Positions 2,349 to 30,781 are shown, counted from the first letter of the stretch. The stretch is 32,000 bases of DNA from Synechocystis sp. PCC 6803 substr. PCC-P (GCF_000284455.1 NC_017039.1:2730001-2762000), one strand, 5' to 3'. Notes: generated by a model from the sequence alone, not told the origin. Program-made: numbers and translations.

Positions 2349-3128
2349 CTAGAGTCCCACTAGGGGTAGTAAATATTTAAACGCCATGGAAGCCACCCCC
2401 CGCACAATGGCATCCAACTGGGGATTTCCTGCCCCCTGACGTCGGGCCTCCTGCATATTGGCCAAATCTTCTAAAAACTGCTCTGAAGTTTTAACCCCCA
2501 CCTCATCCTGGTTTTCCTCAAACAATAACTGGGCATATTCCACATTTTGTTTAGCGGAAGCTTCATTGCCAATTTTCAGCAAGGTCAAACCCCGCCCTAA
2601 ATATCCCGGCGCAAATTCCGGGTCCAGGGCCAAGGCTTGGTCATAGTGGTTGAGGGCAGATTGATAATTTCCCTTACTGGTTTCTAACAGGCCCCAGCCA
2701 TAGAATAGTTGGGGAGTGCCGGCTGTATTCGGAACGGCTTTGGCCCCCTGCATATAGGCGGTTTCCAAATTGGTATTGATAAACGTCGCCCGGTCAAAAT
2801 AGGCTTCCCGAAAATCGGTACCATCGGTGATCGCCCCGTTTAAATTTGCCCCCGACAGATTAGCCCCATTCAAGGAAGCGGAAGTTAAATTAGCACCGGA
2901 AAGATTCGCTCCCGTCAAATCTGCCCCCGACAGATTGGCCCCCGATAAGTCCGCCCCCGTCAAATCCGCCCGGGTGAGGTTAACCATCACCAAGCCTGCC
3001 CCCCGCAAATCACAGAGGGGACATTTTTTAGTGGATAGCAGTTGGGTCAAATCCTCAAAGTTGGCCCCGTGGGCAGCGCCAGCAAAGGTAGTTAGGCCCA
3101 GGGCCACAAGAAAGGGACGAATTTTCAT
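2349..3128 (-). CDS. Secreted pentapeptide-repeat protein with a C-terminal TPR-like region
   Basis: There is an N-terminal signal peptide (MKIRPFLVALGLTTFAGAAHG). A run of A(D/N)LxG pentapeptides follows (ADLTGADLSGANLSGADLTGANLSGANLTSASLNGANLSGANL), visible as 15-nt periodicity at about 2830-2990. The C-terminus is TPR-like (GNYQSALNHYDQALALDPEFAPGYLGRG). Confidence 0.8.
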   Translation of the reverse strand: MKIRPFLVALGLTTFAGAAHGANFEDLTQLLSTKKCPLCDLRGAGLVMVNLTRADLTGADLSGANLSGADLTGANLSGANLTSASLNGANLSGANLNGAITDGTDFREAYFDRATFINTNLETAYMQGAKAVPNTAGTPQLFYGWGLLETSKGNYQSALNHYDQALALDPEFAPGYLGRGLTLLKIGNEASAKQNVEYAQLLFEENQDEVGVKTSEQFLEDLANMQEARRQGAGNPQLDAIVRGVASMAFKYLLPLVGL

Positions 3129-6745: not shown

Positions 6746-6961
6746 TTAACTGTCCTCTTGATCAAGTTTTTGCAACATAGCAAGGCTATTCTTTACCTGT
6801 TTTTCAAGGTATGGTTTGGCATCACTGCCATCATTTCCACAAATAATGATAGCTTGCTCCAGTTTGGGATGCTTCCATTTACTATGACTTCCCTTCCCTG
6901 ACTCAACGGTAAATCCTGCTTTGCTAAGTAGACTTTTTAGTTCTCTAATTTTCTTGGGCAT
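6746..6961 (-). CDS. hicA: HicA-family mRNA interferase toxin
   Basis: MPKKIRELKSLLSKAGFTVESGKGSHSKWKHP matches the YcfA/HicA pattern, including the conserved GSH histidine. The gene sits upstream of hicB, the typical order. Confidence 0.85.
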   Translation of the reverse strand: MPKKIRELKSLLSKAGFTVESGKGSHSKWKHPKLEQAIIICGNDGSDAKPYLEKQVKNSLAMLQKLDQEDS

Positions 6962-18853: not shown

Positions 18854-21800
18854 ATGAAAAGTGCTTTTTTAGACCGTATCCACAGTCCCGATCGCCCGGT
18901 ATTAGTCTTTGACGGGGCTATGGGTACAAACCTGCAGGTACAGAACCTAACGGCGGCGGATTTTGGTGGGGCGGAATACGAAGGTTGCAATGAATATTTA
19001 GTCCATACCAAGCCAGAGGCCGTGGCTACGGTGCATCGTGCTTTTTACGAAGCGGGGGCCGATGTCGTGGAAACGGATACTTTTGGGGGAACGCCCCTGG
19101 TGCTGGCGGAGTACGATTTAGCAGACCAAAGTTATTACTTAAATAAAGCAGCGGCGGAGTTGGCCAAGGCGGTAGCAGCGGAATTTTCTACCCCAGAAAA
19201 GCCTCGATTCGTGGCCGGCTCCATGGGACCAGGCACCAAGCTACCCACCCTAGGTCATGTGGACTACGATAGTCTCAAGGATGCCTATGTGGTTCAGGTG
19301 CGGGGTTTATACGATGGCGGAGTGGATTTATTGCTAGTGGAAACCTGCCAGGATGTGCTGCAAATTAAAGCGGCCTTGAACGCCATTGAACAGGTCTTTG
19401 CCGAAAAAGGCGATCGCCTACCGTTGATGGTGTCAGTAACCATGGAAACCATGGGGACCATGCTGGTGGGTACGGAGATGGCGGCGGCCCTGGCCATTTT
19501 GGAGCCCTATCCCATCGATATTTTGGGGCTAAACTGCGCCACCGGGCCAGATTTGATGAAGGAACACGTTAAATATCTTTCCGAACATTCCCCCTTTGTG
19601 GTGTCCTGTATTCCCAATGCTGGTTTGCCAGAAAACGTTGGCGGTCAAGCTTTTTATCGCCTCACCCCGATGGAACTGCAAATGTCCCTGATGCACTTCA
19701 TCGAAGACCTGGGAGTACAGGTAATTGGTGGTTGTTGTGGCACTAGACCCGATCACATCAAGGCCCTGGCGGATATTGCCAAGGATCTCCAGCCCAAACA
19801 ACGCCAACCTCACTACGAACCCAGCGCCGCTTCCATTTATTCCACCCAAACCTACGCCCAAGAAAATTCTTTTTTAATCATTGGCGAACGGCTCAATGCC
19901 AGTGGCTCGAAAAAATGTCGAGATCTGCTCAATGCTGAAGATTGGGACAGCCTAGTTTCCCTGGCTAAATCCCAAGTCAAGGAAGGAGCCCAAATCCTTG
20001 ACGTCAACGTGGATTACGTTGGTCGAGATGGGGTAAGGGACATGAAAGAATTAGCTTCCCGACTAGTCAATAATGTCACCCTGCCGTTGATGTTGGACTC
20101 CACCGAATGGCAAAAAATGGAGGCGGGTTTAAAAGTTGCAGGGGGAAAATGTATTCTCAATTCCACCAACTACGAAGACGGGGAAGAACGGTTTTATAAA
20201 GTGTTAGAAATTGCCAAAGAATATGGAGCTGGTATTGTCATTGGCACCATCGATGAAGATGGCATGGGACGCACTGCAGATAAAAAATTTGAGATTGCCA
20301 AACGGGCCTACGAAGCGGCGATCGCCTTTGGCATTCCGGCCACAGAAATTTTCTTTGATCCTTTAGCTCTGCCTATTTCCACCGGCATTGAAGAAGACAG
20401 GGAGAACGGTAAAGCCACCGTGGATGCTATCCGCAGAATTCGCCAGGAATTGCCCGATTGTCATATTTTGTTGGGGGTTTCTAACGTTTCCTTTGGCTTG
20501 AATCCCGCCGCTCGCCAGGTACTCAATTCCATCTTTCTCCACGAATGTATGCAGGTGGGCATGGATGCGGCCATTGTCAGTGCCAATAAGATTTTACCCC
20601 TGGCAAAAATTGACCCAGAACAACAACAAGTCTGTCTAGATTTAATCTATGACCGCCGGGAATTTGAAGGAGAGCGCTGTACATATGACCCGTTAACCAA
20701 ACTCACCACTTTATTTGAAGGTAAAACCACCAAACGGGATAAATCCGGTGATGCCAATTTACCGGTGGAAGAAAGATTAAAACGCCACATCATTGATGGG
20801 GAAAGATTGGGCTTAGAAGAGGCCCTCAATGAAGCTTTAAAACTTTACGCTCCCTTAGATATCATTAACATCTATTTGTTGGATGGCATGAAAGTGGTGG
20901 GGGAACTATTTGGTTCCGGGCAAATGCAGTTGCCCTTTGTGTTGCAGTCGGCCCAAACCATGAAAGCGGCGGTGGCTTTTTTAGAACCCCATATGGATAA
21001 GGATGATTCCGCCGACAATGCTAAGGGTACTTTTTTAATTGCCACTGTTAAGGGGGATGTCCATGATATTGGCAAAAACTTAGTGGATATTATCCTTTCC
21101 AACAATGGCTATCGAGTGGTCAACCTAGGCATTAAACAGCCAGTGGAAAATATTATCGAAGCCTACAAAAAACACAGGCCCGATTGCATTGCCATGAGTG
21201 GTTTGTTGGTCAAATCAACTGCTTTTATGAAGGAAAATTTAGAAGTTTTCAACCAAGAGGGCATTACTGTTCCCGTCATTCTTGGTGGTGCTGCTTTAAC
21301 GCCTAAATTTGTTCACCAGGACTGCCAAAATACCTACAAAGGCCAAGTAATTTACGGCAAAGATGCGTTCGCCGATTTACATTTCATGGATAAGCTAATG
21401 CCCGCTAAAAATAGCCACAATTGGGATGATTTCCAGGGCTTTTTAGGGGAATATGCAACGGAAAATGGCCATAATGTGACCACTGATGATGGTGCTAAAA
21501 CTAATTTTGGCATTGAAGAAGAAAAATTAATTGACGCTAGTGAGCAGTCTAGGGAGCCGGAGGTAATTGATACTGTTCGTTCTGAAGCGGTGGACCCTGA
21601 TCTAGAAAGACCTGTGCCACCTTTTTGGGGCACTAAAATTTTGCAATCCAGTGATATTTCCCTCGATGAAGTCTTCCCTTTACTGGATTTACAAGCATTA
21701 TTTGTTGGTCAGTGGCAGTTTCGCAAACCTAGGGAGCAATCCAGGGAAGAATACGAGCAATTCCTAGCGGAAAAAGTTCATCCCATTTTGGCTGAGTGGA

Positions 21801-22441
21801 AAGGTAAGGTCATGGCAGAAAATTTACTCCATCCTACGGTGGTTTATGGTTATTTTCCCTGTCAATCCCAGGGCAATACCTTGTTAATTTATGACCCAGA
21901 ATTGGTCAGCCAAAATAATGGCCAAATTCCCCCAGACGCAACGGCGATCGCCAAATTTGAGTTTCCCCGGCAAAAATCAGGGCGGCGGCTCTGTATTGCG
22001 GACTTTTTTGCTTCAAAAGAATCGGGGATTACTGATGTTTTTCCTTTGCAAGCGGTTACAGTGGGGGAAATCGCGACGGAATATGCAAGGAAACTTTTTG
22101 CTGGCGATAATTACACCGATTACCTCTACTTCCACGGCATGGCGGTGCAGATGGCGGAAGCTTTAGCGGAGTGGACTCACCAACGGATACGTCAGGAATT
22201 GGGCTTTGGCCATTTAGATCCAGATAACATCCGTGATCTTCTCCAGCAACGTTACCAAGGTTCCCGCTACAGTTTTGGTTATCCCGCTTGTCCCAACATG
22301 CAGGATCAATACACACAATTAGAATTGTTACAAACCGAACGAATTGGCTTGTATATGGATGAAAGTGAACAGGTTTATCCAGAACAATCCACCACGGCGA
22401 TTATTTCCTATCATCCTGCGGCTAAATATTTCAGCGCTTAA
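18854..22441 (+). CDS. metH: Cobalamin-dependent methionine synthase
   Basis: This is a 1,195-aa, four-module protein. It has the Hcy-binding module (GGCCGT), the pterin-binding module, the B12-binding DxHxxG motif (GDVHDIGKN) with MSGLL, and the AdoMet activation domain at the C-terminus. Confidence 0.97.
21944..22129 (+). repeat. Left copy of an imperfect direct repeat (metH 3' region) whose degraded partner lies at 28265-28451
   Basis: Hand alignment gives roughly 85% nucleotide identity over about 186 nt. A second block, 22379-22441, matches 28452-28515. Confidence 0.85.
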
Positions 22442-22468
22442 AATTCCCATACTCTCTTATTTGACGCT

Positions 22469-22678
22469 ATGCCTAAGAAAATTAGGGAATTAAAAACGAT
22501 GCTTTTTCAATCAGGTTTTACCTGTAAATCGGGCAAGGGGAGTCATACAAAATGGGATCATCCCCTACTGGATGGAATAGTCACACTTTCTGGTAAAGAT
22601 GGCAGTGATGCTAAGTTTTATCAAGAAAAGGATGTTTTACAAGCTATTCAAATTGTTAAACAAAAAGGAGGAAATTGA
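22469..22678 (+). CDS. hicA: HicA-family mRNA interferase toxin (second copy)
   Basis: MPKKIRELKTMLFQSGFTCKSGKGSHTKWDHP. It is about half identical to the 6746-6961 copy and starts 27 nt after the metH stop. Confidence 0.85.
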   Translation: MPKKIRELKTMLFQSGFTCKSGKGSHTKWDHPLLDGIVTLSGKDGSDAKFYQEKDVLQAIQIVKQKGGN

Positions 22679-22914
22679 TGATGGAAAATGTTCAAAACCA
22701 TTATTCTTTAATTATTCAATGGTCAGATCTTGACAACTGCTTTGTGGTCAGTTTACCTGAATGGGGTGATTTTTGTCACACCCATGGGGATACCTATGAG
22801 GAGGCTTTCCAACAAGGGAAGGAGTTGTTGGATTTTTTAATTGAAACTACGCTAGAGGAAGGGAATATTTTGCCTATTCCCCAATTTTTTCAACAATCAT
22901 TAGTTACGACTTAA
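22678..22914 (+). CDS. hicB: HicB-like antitoxin (second copy)
   Basis: YSLIIQWSDLDNCFVVSLPEWGDFCHTHGDTYEEAFQQGKELL. ATG 22678 overlaps the hicA TGA (TGATG), and an AAAGGAGG SD lies just upstream. Confidence 0.75.
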   Translation: MMENVQNHYSLIIQWSDLDNCFVVSLPEWGDFCHTHGDTYEEAFQQGKELLDFLIETTLEEGNILPIPQFFQQSLVTT

Positions 22915-23009
22915 GTTAAGGCAAGTAAAATTAAGACATAGATTAAAAAAACACAAATAATTTTATAAAGATGATTGATTCTTCATACCCACGTGTATAG
23001 CAATGCTAT

Positions 23010-23259
23010 TTAATTTTTCAAGCTTAAATAATTTTGAGCAGCGTGTTCTGCCTCTGTTATGCCCAGAGGTAAAATATTGACAGACGTTAAAATGCTGGCA
23101 ATTGCTTGTTCAATTTTTAATGCACGTTGGGGATTTAGGGCTAAGCCATATTGTTGAAACGGCAATCTCGATTGGTGGGGTTTGTTTGAGTTTGGTCGTT
23201 GTTCCCGACTCTCCCTTGATAAAGTCACTAATCACATAGGTATCAAGCAGGTAACGCAT
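23010..23259 (-). pseudogene. vapC: Degraded PIN-domain toxin vapC (frameshifted and 3'-truncated)
   Basis: From ATG 23259 the frame reads MRYLLDTYVISDFIKGESGTTTKLKQTPPIEIAVSTI, then runs to a stop at 23112-23110. A second frame continues QQYGLALNPQRALKIEQAIASILTSVNILPLGITEAEHAAQNYLSLKN and stops at 23010. The last third of a PIN domain, with the third and fourth acidic residues, is absent. Confidence 0.6.
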
Positions 23260-23501
23260 TAGAATAACTCTGGTTCACAGGGAGAGAGAAGCTCATCTCG
23301 ATACGACTCAAATTCAGGGAAATTCGGAAAACCTTCGTAAGATATAACGACTTCTGTCCATTGGGAAGTGGAAACGGTAGGCATTTCAATCATTTGGCGT
23401 AAGGCTTTCAAAATGATGGTTTGTAGGGGAACATTCGCTGTTTTTGCTTGACGAAGTAAATCTTGTTCAATATCTGGCGGTAGATTGATTGTAATTTGCA
23501 T
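23259..23501 (-). CDS. vapB: VapB-type antitoxin (RHH-like N-terminus), apparently intact
   Basis: MQITINLPPDIEQDLLRQAKTANVPLQTIILKALRQMIE is typical of cyanobacterial PIN-partner antitoxins. Its stop overlaps the vapC start (TAATG). A GAGGG SD precedes the ATG. Confidence 0.6.
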   Translation of the reverse strand: MQITINLPPDIEQDLLRQAKTANVPLQTIILKALRQMIEMPTVSTSQWTEVVISYEGFPNFPEFESYRDELLSPCEPELF

Positions 23502-23530
23502 TCTCTTTTCCCTCGGAGGTTAACCATTTA

Positions 23531-26500
23531 TTAATTTTTGGGCATCGCTTGTTGTTCAATCTTTGAAGGGGAACCATTTAAACTATCCTTTAGCACATCG
23601 TTAAATATACCATTAAAAAAAATACCAACTACTGTTGCAATAACTCCAATTATTCCAATCACTCCAAACAGAATCTCCCAATTAAATCTTTTTTGTTTCT
23701 CTGGACTAGAACAAGTCACGTTATTACTTGTTACACCACTTGTACCGACCGGAGCATTAATTGTTGAATCTGAAATATTGTTGATAATTTTGGGCTCATC
23801 TTCCATTTTTTCTGTCCTCTTATCTATGGTACTAAGTTGATTAGATAAATCTAAATTAGAAGGCTCTGGAATAATTAAAAATTCAAGAAGTTTATCTGGT
23901 TTAAAAGGTCGCCAAGTTTCACGGCGCATATTTTGTTGTGCATAAGTTAGCGTTTCTTTTAACCAAGGGAGATGGGGAAGCTCCTGGATAAGACGCTCAA
24001 GTTCAGCACAGGCTTCGATGGTCCCTTTGTCTCTTAATTGTGATAAAGAGTTATTCCTAAAAAATGCAATATTATCTCTAGGGCTAACTATATAAGCCAT
24101 TACTTCGTTTCGATGATCCGGATCTTCATAATGAGGATACTGCCACACTAACCAGGCATATAAATCTGCAATTTGTTTTTCAGTCAAGTCAAACTTGATT
24201 CCACTTAAATTACAAGAAGCGGCTAATTCAAATGCCTCGCGTCCAAACTGTACATCTGCCGTAATTTTTTCCCATATTACATTCCAGCTATCTGGATCTG
24301 AATAAGTGATAAGTGCTTTAATGGCGAACAATGCTTTTTGCCGTTCACTATCAAATTCACTATTAGTATAATTTCGTATTGTGGATAAAGCGATATCTTT
24401 GGCTTGAACAGCTCCTTGCTCAATAAGTTTTTCTAATAGCTTTCTAAATACGTTAGGCTTTAATTGAGAATCTTTTACTTTTTCTGTCAAGTTATTTTCT
24501 AATTTTTCATCCCAACACATCTCTAAGCGATCAATCACAAAAATATTATTATCTTGATTTTCTTTGTCAATCAATTTTAAAAGCGTTGTCAAAAATTCAT
24601 CTGGAGAATGGTGATATGAGAGGCTGACTAATTTTCGGCAATTTTTTCTTGGATTTGAGTCAATAAAACTATTAGGAACTGACAGGATTATGGGTGTCCA
24701 TCTTTTCCATATATCCGTTGAAAAATTGTCTAAAGTTCTTGGAGCTTCCGTCAAGATTAACTGTAATGCCTTGCAACCATACAATTCGGAAAAATTATAT
24801 GTATTTGTTCCTATCCAGCTATAATCTATATTTGTTTGCTGTTGAATATATTGAATTGCCCCCTGAATAATTCTTTTTTTTGTTGCTTGCTCTGCTTCTT
24901 TCCATCCCGGAAGCTGAGTCAGATCTAATTTTAAGTTATGACCATAACGTTTGCTTTGTGGCAGTAAAGTCATTTCTCGATTTAGTCGCCACCATGCGGA
25001 TAAATCTCCCGATTCTAACTGCTCTAAACAGTCAATAACTCTTTCTTTTGGTGGAGGATCTAGCAAGTCCGGCTTATTCCAGGAATTTTTCATTTTAAGA
25101 TAATGATCACGTAATTGAGTCACTTCTTCTGAGTCCAACTCAATAGGAGTAAAGTAATAACTAAAAACGTCACTAAGAATAGAGTTGTTTTGAGTGGCTT
25201 TAATAATTTCACTTATCTGCTTTGTATCTCGACGATCAAATACTTCCTCGATTATTTTAGCCCACGCTCTTTGAATTTTTTCATGGTTGGAATCTTGGAG
25301 TTTTTCTAGCATCCAATCAACATCATTGGAGCTTATAATTGGTTCTGTCATTGAGCTTGTTAAAAAATAAAAATCTTCATCTTCATCTTTTTCTGCAATG
25401 CTTTCAACTAAATTTTCAATAAGAGCATAACGCTTTTGATTGTTTCCCAAAAGTGATTCTTGAAATTGGGCTTGTAAACTCGGAGAATGACTAATGAGTT
25501 TCTGATGCTCTTTCCATTGTAATAATGCTACTTGCGTAAAACCCTCCAGTACTCCAGGAACGTTAACGTGTTCCCATGCTTTTAGCAGAATTGCATCTCC
25601 TAGTTCTTCAAATGGATGCCCAAAGCATCGCACACCTTGAGTTTTCAGCCAGTCGAGAGCAATAACTAAATCTTCGGAATCAAGTTGTGGAACTAACTCA
25701 GACTCAAGAAAATATCGATGCATTCCAAGCAAATTTATCCTTTTCGATGGAGTGAGCGCCTGAAATAATTCTTCGGCTGTTAGTTGCCTTGGCCAGAGTG
25801 CTTTCAACGCATAGGCTTTTAGTTCATCTTGCTCATCTTCCGGTAAAACATTGAGTGCAAGGGACTTTAGCTTTAATCTTGTAGATTGATCACCTATTGA
25901 ACTAATAGCACGGGCGGCATTAACTCTTATACTTATTGGCTGTGATGGACAAAGAGTTAGCTTTGCTAAGTCACCTTGAAGCTCAGAGAGATTACACTCT
26001 ATGGCAATATCAATTGCTATCCTTCGTGTATCCTCTTTCTTGCTGGAATCACAAATATAAACTTTCAACTGCTCAGCTAGCCCAGAATGTTTTAATTTTG
26101 CGTAATTACGAACGTTGCAAAATCCTCGATCAAATAATTTTTCTTCCTCATATTGCATTAATAAATTAGCAACAATTGTCGCTCGAAGCTCTGAATCAGT
26201 AGGTATATCGGTTTGCAAAAGAACGTCAGGATCAGTTTTAATTATCTCTTGAAACACATTATCCCTCATGGAAGCTAACCAAACTGCTGTTTCATGAAGT
26301 TGTGGAATAAGCTTAGGAGTGGAATCAGCAGATGAATACAACAATGTCTTAATCTTTGATAAGTCAATGTTTCGTTGCGTCAAATACCAAGCCGCAAAAA
26401 ACTCAGCATAGGTTTGGTGTGCCCATCCCATTCGATGCAATCCACGAGATGAAAATAAACCAGTATCTAAAACTTCTTGAATTACTTCTTGAGTAATCTC

Positions 26501-27490
26501 AAATTCTCTTCCATTTGATTCTTCATAACCGAAACATAACTTTTGACGAGGAACATCTTCAGCCGGAACTTGTCCCTGTTCGACATCAATCCACACAGCA
26601 AATCGATTAGCAAAGATCGTAACGGCGGCAATTCGAGCTGCCACAATCAGTCGTTGATCAATATCTAAATTGCCTGTCTCCTTTAAGGCATGACGACATT
26701 TACTTACTTCTTCGCAAAGACACTTGCATCCTTCAAGATAAGATTCATAACGTTTCTGTTCTGGAGGAAATTGGCTGTTATGACGGCGGTATGTATTCAA
26801 TAAAAATCCTAGAGAGATTGGTTTAATCGCTAGGGGTACAATATCCCTTTGGTTAATCGCTTTCAGAAAGTCATCGGAAGAAAAACCTTCAGCTTCCACA
26901 GCGTTGATTACGTCTATACGGCGAAGTGGAGCTAGTTCATAAATTGCAAAGTTACTTTCTTCCCAAAGAGCTTTTAGAGCTTCTTCTAAAATGGATGGAA
27001 ACGCCAAAGTTCGACAAGTTAAACGGAGATGAAGACGATTAATATGACTTCGATATTTAGGTTTCTTAAACTCATCAACCAATCCTATCGCCAAGGATTT
27101 GACGTTCAAGAGTCCTTCATCAAGACTGTCCAAAAACAAATGGAGGTGATAATGACCCTCTAACCAGTCGGAAAAAGTTTTATCCCTAAACAAATCCTCT
27201 TTTAAATTAGTAAAGGTTCGAAGATTCAAGCCCAGGACTTTACTATATTCGCAGATTGTTTCTTCGGTAAATCGTTGTAGCTTTTCTAGTTCGTGGGTTT
27301 TGCCAACGCCAGGCTCCCCCAATAAAACAAGGCAAGGAATCTCAGCAATATCTTCTAAACTCACCAGATCTGGGTTACATGCTTTGCCCCATTTTGTATT
27401 TGGATCGTCTAAGTAACCGCCATCTCTCAGACTTATGTTACCTGAGCGAGGACACCAGAACCGCTTCCAATTATAGTTTTGTTGCGACAT
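23531..27490 (-). CDS. NACHT-type STAND P-loop NTPase with a long helical-repeat (ARM/HEAT-like) region and a single C-terminal transmembrane helix
   Basis: Walker A is GEPGVGKT (res 58-65) and Walker B is LFLDSLDE (res 118-125). LRLTCRT, PLAIKP and WAHQTYAEFFAAWYL (res 356-370) are NACHT-like signatures. The TM helix is ILFGVIGIIGVIATVVGIFF (res 1273-1292). The gene is AT-rich and HIP1-free. Confidence 0.75.
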   Translation of the reverse strand: MSQQNYNWKRFWCPRSGNISLRDGGYLDDPNTKWGKACNPDLVSLEDIAEIPCLVLLGEPGVGKTHELEKLQRFTEETICEYSKVLGLNLRTFTNLKEDLFRDKTFSDWLEGHYHLHLFLDSLDEGLLNVKSLAIGLVDEFKKPKYRSHINRLHLRLTCRTLAFPSILEEALKALWEESNFAIYELAPLRRIDVINAVEAEGFSSDDFLKAINQRDIVPLAIKPISLGFLLNTYRRHNSQFPPEQKRYESYLEGCKCLCEEVSKCRHALKETGNLDIDQRLIVAARIAAVTIFANRFAVWIDVEQGQVPAEDVPRQKLCFGYEESNGREFEITQEVIQEVLDTGLFSSRGLHRMGWAHQTYAEFFAAWYLTQRNIDLSKIKTLLYSSADSTPKLIPQLHETAVWLASMRDNVFQEIIKTDPDVLLQTDIPTDSELRATIVANLLMQYEEEKLFDRGFCNVRNYAKLKHSGLAEQLKVYICDSSKKEDTRRIAIDIAIECNLSELQGDLAKLTLCPSQPISIRVNAARAISSIGDQSTRLKLKSLALNVLPEDEQDELKAYALKALWPRQLTAEELFQALTPSKRINLLGMHRYFLESELVPQLDSEDLVIALDWLKTQGVRCFGHPFEELGDAILLKAWEHVNVPGVLEGFTQVALLQWKEHQKLISHSPSLQAQFQESLLGNNQKRYALIENLVESIAEKDEDEDFYFLTSSMTEPIISSNDVDWMLEKLQDSNHEKIQRAWAKIIEEVFDRRDTKQISEIIKATQNNSILSDVFSYYFTPIELDSEEVTQLRDHYLKMKNSWNKPDLLDPPPKERVIDCLEQLESGDLSAWWRLNREMTLLPQSKRYGHNLKLDLTQLPGWKEAEQATKKRIIQGAIQYIQQQTNIDYSWIGTNTYNFSELYGCKALQLILTEAPRTLDNFSTDIWKRWTPIILSVPNSFIDSNPRKNCRKLVSLSYHHSPDEFLTTLLKLIDKENQDNNIFVIDRLEMCWDEKLENNLTEKVKDSQLKPNVFRKLLEKLIEQGAVQAKDIALSTIRNYTNSEFDSERQKALFAIKALITYSDPDSWNVIWEKITADVQFGREAFELAASCNLSGIKFDLTEKQIADLYAWLVWQYPHYEDPDHRNEVMAYIVSPRDNIAFFRNNSLSQLRDKGTIEACAELERLIQELPHLPWLKETLTYAQQNMRRETWRPFKPDKLLEFLIIPEPSNLDLSNQLSTIDKRTEKMEDEPKIINNISDSTINAPVGTSGVTSNNVTCSSPEKQKRFNWEILFGVIGIIGVIATVVGIFFNGIFNDVLKDSLNGSPSKIEQQAMPKN

Positions 27491-27635
27491 GCTCAGCCGA
27501 ACGGGGAAATTTTTTAACTCAAGGATAAATTTCTCTGAAACTCTATTAATTATAATCTATCTGCCCCTAGCATCAGAGATTAAAGCAAGAACACCATTTG
27601 GTTAATGTAGGGAGTCACAGGGCGATCGCCGTTAA

Positions 27636-28208
27636 TCAAAGATCCTTAAAAATTTCATTAACAGTTAACGATAACTGGGGAAACGTAGGGGACTGAATTG
27701 CCATTACCTCTTTAAAATTACCTACTTCCTGATAACAACCGGCTAATAATTCTAAAACCAAGACCGTTTGGGTTTGGGGATCGACAATCCAATATTCAGG
27801 AATGCCACAGGCTTGATATTGTTGACGCTTCGCAATGTAGTCCCGCTCCCGTTGTAATTCCCCCGGACTGACAACTTCCACCACTAGCAAGGGCGGTAAC
27901 ATCGATAACCGAATCGTATTGCGTTTAGCTAATTGGGCAATATGCTCTTCTCGAATAATCGTCAAATCAGGAAAACGGTTTTTGGGTTCGCCGTGAACTT
28001 CTAGTTCTAAACCGTGTCCCCGTACCCGTCGATAACCGACAATTTCAGCAAATTTGAGCAGTAAAAATGTGGCAATTTGAAAGTTTAAACCCGATTCCGT
28101 CGGCACAGCGATTAATTCCCCATTGAATAATTCATAGAGTTGATCAGTATCGTCTTCGTACGCAAGATACTCGTCAAAGCTTTTAAAGCGGGGTTGGAGC
28201 GCTAACAT
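27636..28208 (-). CDS. Uma2 (DUF820) family putative PD-(D/E)xK endonuclease
   Basis: YELFNGELIAVP...PDLTIIREE...PLLVVEVVSPGELQRERDYIAKRQQYQACGIPEYWIVDP is the family signature. Confidence 0.8.
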   Translation of the reverse strand: MLALQPRFKSFDEYLAYEDDTDQLYELFNGELIAVPTESGLNFQIATFLLLKFAEIVGYRRVRGHGLELEVHGEPKNRFPDLTIIREEHIAQLAKRNTIRLSMLPPLLVVEVVSPGELQRERDYIAKRQQYQACGIPEYWIVDPQTQTVLVLELLAGCYQEVGNFKEVMAIQSPTFPQLSLTVNEIFKDL

Positions 28209-28264
28209 AGGCTACCGTTTTCAGAAATAATTAGGCTTTTATTCTAACGATTTAGTAATTTTAT

Positions 28265-28515
28265 GGCGATCGCCAAATTTGAATTTCCCCTGCAAAAGTC
28301 AGGGCGACGGCTTTATATTACGGGCTTCTTTGCCCCAAAAGAGTCGGATATTACCGATGTTTTTCCTTTGCAAGCTTTGACAGTGGGGGAAATAGCAGCG
28401 GAATATGCGAGAGAACTATTTGCTGGCGATAATTACACCGATTGTCTCTACCCAAAATAGTCCGACCAGGGCGATCATGGCCTATCATCCCACTGCCATG
28501 CACTTTAGTACTTAA
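28265..28515 (+). pseudogene. metH: Decayed remnant of a metH 3' end (in-frame ~249-nt internal deletion plus a premature TAG at 28458-28460)
   Basis: The track ORF at 28263-28460 translates [62 protein letters not shown], against met[63 protein letters not shown]. The tail 28452-28515 aligns to the last 63 nt of metH. It ends 1 nt from the convergent pmbA stop. Confidence 0.85.
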
Positions 28516-28516
28516 C

Positions 28517-29857
28517 CTACTCCCCGGTAATGGCCAATCCTTCCACCCAAACTAGGGGACACACTCCCCCTGGGGTGACTTCTGCTTCCGGTTCCAGGTA
28601 AACAATAGTTTTTAAGACTTCTAAAAAGTCCCCTGCCACGGTGGCCGCATCAATACTCTGCTTTTCACCCTTATTTACTAACCAACCATCAAAAGGTAAG
28701 GAAAAGGAACCTTGGAGGGAATTGACCCCGGCGTGGAGAGCTTGGAGTTTATCGATATAAACTACGTTTTCTGCTTGATCAAGACTGTAGCTTTTTTCAG
28801 CAGTTTTCTCGCTATACACATGGTAAAAGTGGGCTCCGACGGTGATTTTAGACCCGATGTTAGCGTGGCCAGTGGGTTGGGTATCAAACCGCTTAGCAGT
28901 GCCAGCGCTGTGTAATAAGCCAGTTAAAACCCCATTTTTAATAATGTCCACTCTCCGGGTGGGGGTTCCTTCGCCGTCAAACCGTTCCGCTGAGATATTC
29001 CCTGGGTGCAGAGCATCATCGCTGACACAGAGCAGTTCACTGGCGATCGCCGTGCCGAGGGTTTCCTTGGTAGCTAAGGACTGTTTATCGAGGATACTTT
29101 GGGCATTGTAAAGGTTAGAAAAAGCACCGAGCAAACTCAAAAAAGCCCGGGCGGAAAAGACGACGGTGTATTTTCCGGTGGGGATGGGGCGGTAATCCAG
29201 ATGGCTAAGGGTTTTCTCTTTAACTGTTTGTAAGCAACCATCAATGTCGAGGCTGGCCAAATCCCGACTAATTTTCATTTCTCCGGCACTGCGGGGTTTT
29301 TTACCTTCCTGTTCTGCCCGACTGTAAAGATAAATGGAAGCATAGGAACGGCATTCATAGCGTTTGGCCCCAGCACTGTTCAGGTAAAACCGCTCCGTGG
29401 TCTGTTCCGATAAACCGTTGTAGGGCACCCCGGTGATGGCGGGATGGCTGGCCAATAAGTCCTGCTCAGCTTTAACTAGTGTGGTAATTAAATCCCCCAT
29501 AGGGGCCGGCTCCGCCACGTCATTCTCTGCGCCACCGATGGGCACTTGGGCTTCGGGGCTGAAGTCGGGAATATTATCTGTGATGCCAAAAGCACTGGCT
29601 TCGGCGGCGGTTTCCAGGGCTAAACTAATGCCGGCTTGGTCCAAATCCGTGGTGCTGGTTACCCCCACCAAACCCTTTTCGTTCCAGACTCGCACAATTA
29701 CACTGGCCCGGTTTGACGCTTCCACCTGCTTCGGTTCTCCAGAATCCACCTCCACTCCGGCATCATCCACGGAAGAACCGTAGATGTCATATTGTTTAAT
29801 TCCCAGTGCAGCGGCTCCCTGGTGAGCATGGTCGGCGATCGCCTGAATATCGAGCAT
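28517..29857 (-). CDS. pmbA: PmbA/TldE family metalloprotease component
   Basis: This is a full-length 446-aa ORF whose sequence resembles the PmbA/TldD family throughout (e.g. VRVWNEKGLVGVTSTTDL, RFDGEGTPTRR, GSFSLPFDGWLV). Confidence 0.8.
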   Translation of the reverse strand: MLDIQAIADHAHQGAAALGIKQYDIYGSSVDDAGVEVDSGEPKQVEASNRASVIVRVWNEKGLVGVTSTTDLDQAGISLALETAAEASAFGITDNIPDFSPEAQVPIGGAENDVAEPAPMGDLITTLVKAEQDLLASHPAITGVPYNGLSEQTTERFYLNSAGAKRYECRSYASIYLYSRAEQEGKKPRSAGEMKISRDLASLDIDGCLQTVKEKTLSHLDYRPIPTGKYTVVFSARAFLSLLGAFSNLYNAQSILDKQSLATKETLGTAIASELLCVSDDALHPGNISAERFDGEGTPTRRVDIIKNGVLTGLLHSAGTAKRFDTQPTGHANIGSKITVGAHFYHVYSEKTAEKSYSLDQAENVVYIDKLQALHAGVNSLQGSFSLPFDGWLVNKGEKQSIDAATVAGDFLEVLKTIVYLEPEAEVTPGGVCPLVWVEGLAITGE

Positions 29858-29941
29858 AGTCTTGTCAATGGTGGACTGAATAATTCCAATTTAGCGAATG
29901 GACGGGGTCGAAAGCTATCCAAACTTCGCGAGAAAGGGTTT

Positions 29942-30781
29942 TTAGCTCAAGCTCAAAAATTTGTCTAGGGCACTGATCACACTGGGGGGCCAACGGCGGA
30001 TCTGTTTCACCCAGTCCAGATCTTGGTAACGGCTATCTACCCCCACAGCGGCCACCCAATTACTTTCCGCTTCCCCCTGTTGGCCATCTACCCAGAGCAC
30101 AGCGGTGAGGGCGGCCCGCATATCCGCAAACATGGGATATTTTTTCACCAGACGACGCATGGTTTGAATGGCTTCGGTTTTTTGTCCCAATTCGTACAAC
30201 GCTAGGGCAGTATTGGCCTGGGCAAAGGCAAAATTAGGGGCGATCGCCGTGGCTTGCTGGAAATCTTCCAATGCACTGGTCCAATTCCCTAGACCCCCTT
30301 CTGCATTACCCCGATTATTGTAGGCAAAGGCATCTTCCGGGTTAACGGCTAAAACCCGATTATAGTCAGCGATGGCGGCTTTAAATTCCCCTTTAGCTTC
30401 CAAGGCAGTGCCCCGGTTGAGGTAAGGATCCGTTTGTTCCGGTGCCAACTCAATGGCCTGGTTAAAATCGGCGATCGCCTCGTCCAATTTGTTTTGGCTA
30501 ACCCGGGAATTACCCCGATTGCTCCACACAGCCGGATTCTGGGGAAACTTTTCGATCAATTCCGTCCAATATTTCTCGGCGGTGACAAAATCCCCTGCTT
30601 CAGTGGCAGCAAAGGCTTTATCCGTCAGGCTATCTCCCACTTCTAACTGTTCATCGGTAAGGGGAATGGGGCTTTCCGTTGCCCAGACTGGGGAAGGAAA
30701 AAACAGCAACAAACCTACCAACACAATGCCCCAGAGGGAGGGCATAAGCAAAGCAAAATATTTTCGTAGAAGGGAAAGCAT
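29942..30781 (-). CDS. TPR-repeat protein with an N-terminal signal/anchor
   Basis: The N-terminus is hydrophobic (LMPSLWGIVLVGLLLFFPSPVWA). At least five 34-aa TPR units follow (e.g. AVWSNRGNSRVSQNKLDEAIADFNQAIELAP, PYLNRGTALEAKGEFKAAIADYNRVLAVNP). Confidence 0.8.
   Translation of the reverse strand: MLSLLRKYFALLMPSLWGIVLVGLLLFFPSPVWATESPIPLTDEQLEVGDSLTDKAFAATEAGDFVTAEKYWTELIEKFPQNPAVWSNRGNSRVSQNKLDEAIADFNQAIELAPEQTDPYLNRGTALEAKGEFKAAIADYNRVLAVNPEDAFAYNNRGNAEGGLGNWTSALEDFQQATAIAPNFAFAQANTALALYELGQKTEAIQTMRRLVKKYPMFADMRAALTAVLWVDGQQGEAESNWVAAVGVDSRYQDLDWVKQIRRWPPSVISALDKFLSLS

Follow-up and report, generated by a model that had tools for sequence, protein, structure and literature searches.

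The islet between metH (methionine synthase) and pmbA in Synechocystis sp. PCC 6803 substr. PCC-P lies within a 32,000-nt stretch of the chromosome (NC_017039.1:2730001-2762000; termed the window here, with positions counted from its first letter unless another locus is named), and it is followed by a decayed second copy of the metH 3' end. The locus is best read as a small, old, integrase-free flexible islet that was founded by a recombination joint at a HIP1 palindrome, with the displaced metH 3' end as its fossil. On balance, the founding event was probably a one-sided homologous recombination combined with a HIP1-mediated illegitimate recombination, involving DNA of a related strain. The genes of the region are 100% identical to those of PCC 6803-type Synechocystis chromosomes (e.g., CP129343.1), the metH protein included, and a literature search found no paper that mentions slr0212 or sll0887 (pmbA) or that describes a metH remnant.

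The live metH (18854..22441, + strand) is an intact gene of 1195 aa, with five Pfam MetH domains precomputed for an identical protein. Its 3' end recurs at 28265..28515 (+ strand) as a pseudogene remnant, comprised of a 187-nt part (28265-28451) and a 64-nt tail (28452-28515). In a BLASTN comparison within the window, the 187-nt part aligns without gaps to metH 21943..22129 (+ strand), with 160/187 positions identical (86%, E 3e-54); an earlier reading of this DNA, made from the sequence alone, had described the same match with a start at 21944, which was off by one. The adjoining 249 nt of metH (83 codons; 22130..22378, + strand) have no counterpart in the remnant in a multiple alignment, and the 64-nt tail corresponds, with one base inserted, to the last 63 nt of metH including its TAA stop (22379..22441, + strand). 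BLASTN recovers this tail over 28449-28490 (vs. 22376-22416; 79% identity, 1-nt indel, E 0.005), and the homology extends, by eye and in the multiple alignment, to the TAA at 28513-28515. The 65-aa open reading frame (ORF) of the remnant (28263-28460) runs in frame into a premature TAG at 28458-28460, and is matched by the NCBIfam model TIGR02082 (metH) at E 4.9e-11; past the frameshift, the tail encodes a recognizable MetH C-terminus that ends at the original TAA (in-frame translation of the remnant end: YPK*S.TRAIMAYHPTAMHFST*). The convergent pmbA (28517..29857, - strand; Pfam PmbA_TldD domains) has its stop codon at 28517-28519, leaving 1 nt between the two stops. The sequence-only reading had anticipated the missing ~249 nt, the identity of the tail, the premature stop and the 1-nt spacing, and on each of these points the alignments agree with it. 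The layout, an intact live metH with a truncated and decaying copy downstream, likewise fits its suggestion that the inserted DNA supplied a replacement 3' end. The original length of the repeat was ~500 bp, and its left edge falls exactly at a HIP1 site.

The remnant is found in PCC 6803, CACIAM 05, PCC 7338/7339, and S. salina, in each case with the same deletion and with the same junction between HIP1 and the flank of a neighboring gene, uma2; its presence in independent complete genomes means that it is not an assembly artefact. The end points of the 249-nt deletion are identical in 4/4 remnants in the multiple alignment, and in a tree of 236 shared columns the remnants form one clade (99% bootstrap) with the topology (7339,(salina,(CACIAM05,6803))), in which 6803 pairs with CACIAM 05, as it does among the live copies. 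The lesions are strain-specific: 6803 has a TAG and one inserted nucleotide, CACIAM 05 and 7339 are frameshifted in other ways, and S. salina carries a TAA in frame. Codon bias is also relaxed, given that differences between live metH copies occur almost all at codon position 3, and differences between remnants are spread over positions 1, 2, and 3. The shared deletion and junction, the single clade, the strain-specific lesions and the relaxed codon bias together identify the remnant as a pseudogene that arose once, before the 6803, CACIAM 05, 7338/7339, and S. salina lineages split. The founding event is an old one and no recent arrival, its product having been passed on vertically in at least four lineages of species rank.

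The boundaries of the islet coincide with HIP1. Within live metH, the HIP1 site GGCGATCGCC at gene position 3090 (21943..21952) is exactly where homology to the remnant starts, and sequence comparison places a second copy of GGCGATCGCC at 28265..28274, where the 5' flank of uma2 meets the metH fragment; this 10-bp sequence, common to the uma2 flank and to metH position 3090, is the microhomology at the illegitimate joint. The metH site is kept in the live genes of 6803, CACIAM 05, 7339, LEGE 06083, and 6714, and is absent from the metagenome-assembled genome (MAG) L095 and from LKSZ1. The uma2|HIP1 junction is identical in 6803, CACIAM 05, 7339, and the S. salina remnant (S1), and its uma2-flank side is identical also at a second displaced metH 3' end of S. 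salina (S2). At S2, HIP1 stays on the uma2 side, and 61 nt of filler (L005 13617-13677, with no match in any fetched locus) separate it from the metH sequence, which shows that the uma2 flank has a HIP1 of its own. A further HIP1 site (27622..27629), 7 nt beyond the uma2 stop, forms the right edge of the variable cargo: homology to CACIAM 05 and to S. salina begins exactly at the G of 27622, with three unrelated sequences to its left, such that this edge is the same in three different configurations. Both mappable junctions therefore sit on HIP1 palindromes, and with 27 sites in the 32-kb window (~1 per 1.2 kb) the chance of a random breakpoint landing on HIP1 is ~1%.

Recombination at HIP1 has precedents. 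These include an illegitimate, HIP1-flanked deletion of 352 bp at smtB in Synechococcus PCC 6301 (Gupta 1993, as summarized in 10.64898/2026.06.24.733823) and HIP1 site-specific or plasmid recombination in PCC 7002 (Akiyama et al. 1998, as summarized in PMC4390886; PMC5861425). In addition, HIP1 has a Chi-like stimulating effect on the efficiency of integration (10.1101/2024.09.10.611283).

Between these boundaries, the cargo slot (22442..27621) is variable, AT-rich and free of HIP1, as seen in the GC profile, the HIP1 scan and the strain comparison. Its GC content is 34-40%, vs. 43-52% in the flanks, and there are 0 HIP1 octamers between 21944 and 27622, where ~4.4 would be expected per 5.2 kb; the cargo is compositionally foreign. 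Pfam searches of all island ORFs and the larger ORFs of the window, together with tRNA and Rfam scans, found no integrase, transposase, tRNA, tmRNA or Rfam family in the window, in agreement with the earlier statement that no integrase remains there. Gene tables with precomputed Pfam matches and an ORF list likewise revealed no recombinase between metH and pmbA in CACIAM 05, 7338/7339, and S. salina, except for an IS5-like transposase in S. salina.

Comparison with relatives shows that the contents of the slot turn over. PCC 7338/7339 have the same layout as 6803. In CACIAM 05 the order is metH-hicAB-PIN relic-FAD oxidoreductase-80-aa gene-uma2|remnant-pmbA, without the large NACHT-like gene of 6803. 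The FAD-dependent oxidoreductase gene (contig L093), between the PIN relic and the 80-aa gene, belongs to an insert of 1.5 kb bracketed by 122-bp direct repeats (L093 14176-14297 and 12534-12654) that are 88.5% identical to each other. Both repeats correspond to window positions 23150-23271, one being 97% like 6803 and the other 89%, i.e., a diverged allele, so that this insert carries the same duplication-bracketed signature as the metH relic, without any integrase. In S. salina LEGE 00031 the order is pmbA, remnant S1, uma2#1, a DUF3592-like gene of 169 aa, S2, a second uma2 (uma2#2), and an insertion sequence (IS), and the live metH is on a contig that breaks ~300 nt past its stop, in a transposase-like sequence. 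S2 and uma2#2 lie side by side (L005 13131-14317), and S2 covers residues 1035-1194, undeleted and in an open frame. Unequal crossing-over within the 187-nt repeat, as a recent internal duplication, is ruled out as its source: the first segment of S2 is 90-94% identical to live copies vs. 86-89% to remnants, and identity between the two uma2 copies is only 90.8%. The block from S2 to the DUF3592-like gene is collinear over 1358 nt (86%) with MAG L179, in which DUF3592 comes after metH.

The pattern of an insert flanked by one complete and one 5'-truncated target repeat is seen with the metH remnant, with the CACIAM 05 122-bp repeats, and with S2/uma2#2 in S. salina. In LKSZ1, MAG L095, and MAG L179, a different gene follows metH in each, and in L095 these are vapC-vapB, directly after it. 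The slot between metH and uma2 has been swapped repeatedly, and is not the product of one insertion. The sequence-only reading had everything from 22442 to 28264 arriving by insertion, as one event or several; the foreign composition and insertion-like layout are in keeping with this, and the single event does not stand. That the cargo beside metH 3' ends resembles native metH neighbors in L095 and L179 is expected of chromosomal fragments taken up from relatives, with metH as the homologous arm. The ~500-bp repeat with its HIP1 edge, the HIP1 edge at 27622, and the recurring signature point to recombination, not to a site-specific integrase.

Exchange has also affected the flanking genes. Between 6803 and CACIAM 05, divergence reaches 5-8% over 21500-22500, a stretch that takes in the live 3' end, vs. 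a background of ~1%, and a similar patch of 5-8% lies at 19100-20100 in metH. These patches are recombination tracts within an essential gene, and reflect ongoing allele replacement. Mosaic tracts occur in both metH and uma2, and among them no breakpoint attributable to the founding event was identified.

These features are consistent with the following sequence of events. In the common ancestor of the 6803, CACIAM 05, 7338/7339, and S. salina lineages, metH would have ended 1 nt from the stop codon of the convergent pmbA. DNA of a related Synechocystis-like strain, carrying a metH 3' end, its downstream genes and uma2, would then have recombined in, probably via natural transformation, and both Synechocystis 6803 and 6714 are described as transformable (PMC4060947, PMC4867675). 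The left join would have been ordinary homologous recombination within metH, and the right join illegitimate, linking HIP1 of the uma2 5' flank to HIP1 at metH position 3090, a combination that would amount to homology-facilitated illegitimate recombination; Campbell-type integration of a circle closed at HIP1 would be an equivalent route. Because the right join would have lain 500 bp upstream of the resident stop, the resident metH 3' end would have been kept as a promoter-less, 5'-truncated duplicate beside pmbA, to decay through the 249-nt deletion, the stop codon and the frameshifts. Later, the slot from metH to the HIP1 just beyond uma2 would have been overwritten several times by recombination with relatives, with metH and uma2 as the homologous arms, resulting in different toxin-antitoxin (TA) and defence cargos in each strain. 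In this scheme we infer both the direction of the event (i.e., which flank served as anchor) and the uptake by transformation.

Several observations weigh against this scheme. The first concerns the ancestral site. We scanned genome and metagenome contigs for PmbA, and used tblastn for MetH and the island proteins, which yielded 166 distinct non-6803 pmbA contexts, including 80 species-representative genome loci, 80 metagenome contigs, PCC 6714/7338/7339/CACIAM 05, and contig L177. No empty site with metH directly convergent on pmbA, as the sequence-only reading had predicted for relatives, is present among these 166 contexts; metH is near pmbA only in the island-bearing Synechocystis strains. 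Contig L177 carries the PmbA that diverges most within the 90% cluster (92% identity); there, tldD lies upstream of pmbA and unrelated genes lie downstream. Both island and remnant are missing from PCC 6714. In that genome 1.28 Mb separates metH from pmbA, and the genes that come next are MEKHLA, OppC, GH38, and CheA genes after metH and a 65-aa ORF and PhzF after pmbA. Island-free relatives without the metH-pmbA adjacency had been named beforehand as evidence against the insertion, and PCC 6714 is such a relative, although poor synteny weakens the objection. A single inversion between 6803 and 6714 is ruled out by gene orientation, since pmbA has the same orientation relative to metH in CP007542. 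An ancestral adjacency of metH and pmbA would thus follow only because the relic ends at its own stop codon, 1 nt from that of pmbA.

The second concerns the gene trees. The pmbA and TPR genes group 6714 with 6803 and CACIAM 05 (100% bootstrap), whereas in the tree of the first 3 kb of metH 6714 falls outside all of the island-bearing strains (98% bootstrap). This conflict between the pmbA side (28517-30781) and the metH side (18854-22441; 6714 loci L085/L089) means that one flank has moved between lineages, and it leaves the polarity of the event unrooted.

The third concerns the supposed foreignness of a metH 3' end. Live metH shows no divergence step at position 3090 in comparisons with 6714, L095, and LKSZ1. 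Both metH and the remnant carry the GGCGATCGCC specific to the 6803/6714 group and nest inside that group, and with this clade-specific HIP1 common to both, the live 3' end is not shown to be foreign. At codon position 3, divergence between remnant and live copies is 25-36%, and the deepest live-live pairs of the clade reach up to 33%. The HIP1 site, the identity profile and the position-3 divergence hold no evidence of an origin beyond the genus for either 3' end; they speak against a donor from outside the genus and are compatible with one from inside it, and the earlier proposal that one of the two is xenologous is not borne out. The phylogeny of the metH 3' end recommended with that proposal recovers the remnants as monophyletic and does not decide which copy is foreign, as the tree of 236 shared columns does not fix the attachment of the remnant relative to the live copies and 6714.

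The fourth is that the remnant diverges more slowly than the synonymous sites of its neighbors, which a neutral relic would not predict. Remnants diverge no faster than pmbA overall, at ~0.4x the rate of codon position 3 in live genes, and an excess at position 3 persists between them (e.g., 11/10/22 differences at positions 1/2/3 for 6803 vs. 7339). Possible reasons are gene conversion templated by the live copy, movement of the locus from one lineage to another, or constraint. A candidate for residual constraint is the uma2 promoter, for which a weak putative -35/-10 match spans the junction; promoter and terminator predictions in the remnant region are no more numerous than in shuffled sequence. 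On the live side, the transcription start of ssr0335 (hicA) is reported 401 nt upstream of the gene (PMC4963859), and would map to ~22068, within the 187-nt metH repeat. The remnant may carry the same promoter-like sequence, which would point into the 3' end of pmbA.

Finally, a mirror-image event yields an identical structure. Here metH-cargo-uma2-HIP1 would be native, and a segment consisting of a metH 3' fragment, pmbA, TPR and onward would have arrived by transformation or rearrangement from a genome with metH convergent on pmbA, anchored by pmbA-side homology and joined HIP1 to HIP1 beside uma2; the remnant would be a non-functional passenger, and the island not an insertion at all. The occurrence of metH-vapC-vapB in the distant L095 and of metH-DUF3592 in L179 suggests that metH with a small cargo could be old, the tree conflict over 6714 is consistent with an exchange of one flank between lineages, and the smooth identity of live metH across the boundary is as this alternative would have it. 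We nevertheless regard it as unlikely: the AT-rich, HIP1-free cargo has a composition that suits incoming rather than native DNA, synteny with PCC 6714 makes the pmbA-TPR-TetR-MatE block look resident, and a donor with metH convergent on pmbA would still be required, of which none was found.

An island integrated site-specifically at the metH 3' end, with the replacement end as attP and an integrase that was later lost, is a poor match to the data. The element-side copy does restore the metH frame while the displaced copy decays downstream, and foreign composition with TA and defence cargo is typical of islands. Against this, the window has no recombinase and none was seen in the relatives' islets apart from the S. 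salina IS, the duplicate is ~500 bp with allele-like divergence in place of a short, near-identical att core, the mappable junctions are both on HIP1, the unrelated CACIAM 05 insertion has the same long, diverged repeats and no integrase, and there is no tRNA or tmRNA gene. The integrase-type island of the sequence-only reading is for these reasons (no recombinase, a repeat of ~500 bp, a HIP1 palindrome at the left edge) not upheld.

It is just as improbable that the metH 3' end was duplicated internally, by an illegitimate exchange from HIP1 to HIP1 between sister chromosomes of the polyploid genome and without foreign DNA, with cargo inserted and swapped later: the shared clade-specific HIP1, the nesting of both copies within the clade, a remnant-live divergence that needs no extra pre-existing component, and the demonstrably ongoing cargo turnover are compatible with it, but a tandem duplication would have copied sequence past the metH stop, where the live copy has hicA after 27 nt and no trace of the pmbA 3' end, and uma2 would need to have stood between metH and pmbA from the outset, in contradiction to the 1-nt spacing of remnant and pmbA.

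The cargo of PCC 6803 begins 27 nt past the live metH stop with hicA and hicB (22469-22678 and 22675-22914, + strand; Pfam PF07927 and PF15919), corresponding to ssr0335/ssr0336, a type II TA pair in PMC4963859. A further hicA-like paralogue is probably present elsewhere in the window, at 6816-6961, where the opposite strand has 72-73% nucleotide similarity to the hicA region of CACIAM 05 and 7339. A PIN (vapC-like) toxin gene remnant of 72 codons follows (23010..23228, - strand; identified by tblastn), with 81-85% aa identity to the intact 134-aa PIN gene directly after metH in L095. Its 80-aa, vapB-like partner (23259..23501, - strand) has no Pfam match, and is 81% identical (aa) to the 80-aa gene beside PIN in L095. 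The remainder is occupied largely by a gene for a 1319-aa P-loop protein (23531..27490, - strand), a distant relative of NACHT antiphage proteins, with NCBIfam matches to EruA (E 3.1e-41) and HyoA (E 3.7e-38) that are far below the curated family cut-offs. Pfam and PADLOC give no match for this protein, which combines a Walker A motif (GEPGVGKT) with a membrane segment at its C-terminus and may represent an undescribed NLR-like defence gene. CACIAM 05 lacks the gene, and in PCC 7338/7339 it carries a frameshift. In its position, after metH-vapC-vapB, L095 encodes a 1603-aa protein (L095/L096 6543-11354) that has no Pfam match and no detectable similarity to it. A plasmid origin of the cargo was rejected, as the only matches were weak (66-68% nucleotide identity), between the NACHT-like gene and Dolichospermum/Nostoc plasmids. 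On the island-free side, a D12-class adenine methyltransferase gene lies between yidD and metH in PCC 6714 (L085 8941-9858) and is missing from that place in 6803; MAG L006 has a homologue with 64% identity ~6 kb upstream of its pmbA.

The constant right-hand gene of the islet is uma2 (27636..28208, - strand; 190 aa), a member of the Uma2/DUF820 PD-(D/E)XK nuclease family (Pfam PF05685, E 2.2e-31; PADLOC PDC-S03, E 6e-72), which is found beside the remnant in every island-bearing strain, and whose alleles are mosaic between strains. It is framed by two HIP1 sites 644 bp apart (27622-28273), both of which are recombination boundaries; this framing was not seen at the few distant Uma2 paralogs in the fetched loci. 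It is conceivable, as a long shot, that HIP1 serves as the exchange site of a cyanobacterial cassette system, in which the Uma2 nuclease makes the break at HIP1-bounded blocks. If so, the locus would be a natural record of HIP1-directed, integrase-free cassette mobility, and would link HIP1 with the Uma2/DUF820 family, both of them features expanded in cyanobacteria.

Homology-facilitated illegitimate recombination during natural transformation is a process described for Acinetobacter and Streptococcus pneumoniae. The metH locus shares with it a single homologous arm (here metH, and uma2 in the later swaps), an illegitimate joint at a short GC-rich microhomology (here the 10-bp GGCGATCGCC), a foreign insertion with local duplication or deletion, and a naturally transformable host. 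It differs in that the process is read here from comparative sequence, with a direction that is not established, and in that the microhomology is the hyper-abundant HIP1 palindrome rather than a random 3-10-mer. A literature search found no paper reporting this type of recombination in cyanobacteria. The HIP1 cases at smtB in PCC 6301 and on plasmids in PCC 7002, as their citing papers summarize them, have recombination joints at HIP1 sites as well, but comprise a 352-bp deletion and plasmid events in the laboratory, whereas the present case is a natural 6-kb insertion with duplication and later swaps, fixed in several species. Integrase-mediated islands and integrative and conjugative elements at gene 3' ends are alike in keeping the target gene intact with the element-side end, in displacing the other end downstream, and in their AT-rich TA and defence cargo; here there is no recombinase, the repeat is ~500 bp and diverged as opposed to a short identical att, the joints are at HIP1, and no empty site is known. 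Flexible islets between core genes, exemplified by the ~40-kb rfb island of Synechocystis 6803/6714 (PMC4060947), are similar in their conserved flanks (here metH and uma2/pmbA), GC drop and strain-specific cargo. The metH islet is far smaller (5-6 kb), and has a duplicated gene end as a founding fossil and a sharp HIP1 boundary.

By itself, the locus amounts to a flexible islet of an ordinary kind that contains a pseudogene relic. Its wider interest is that it offers, for the main cyanobacterial model organism, a clean case from nature in which foreign DNA became fixed without an integrase, with both the founding joint and later boundaries on HIP1. The function of HIP1 has been a matter of debate for 30 years; a role in recombination is suggested by recent transformation experiments, and natural junctions provide the comparative evidence that those experiments lack. 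Furthermore, recombination in the genus has used the metH 3' end as an anchor repeatedly, leaving nested displaced ends in S. salina, and this matters for the use of this region as a neutral site and for strain typing.

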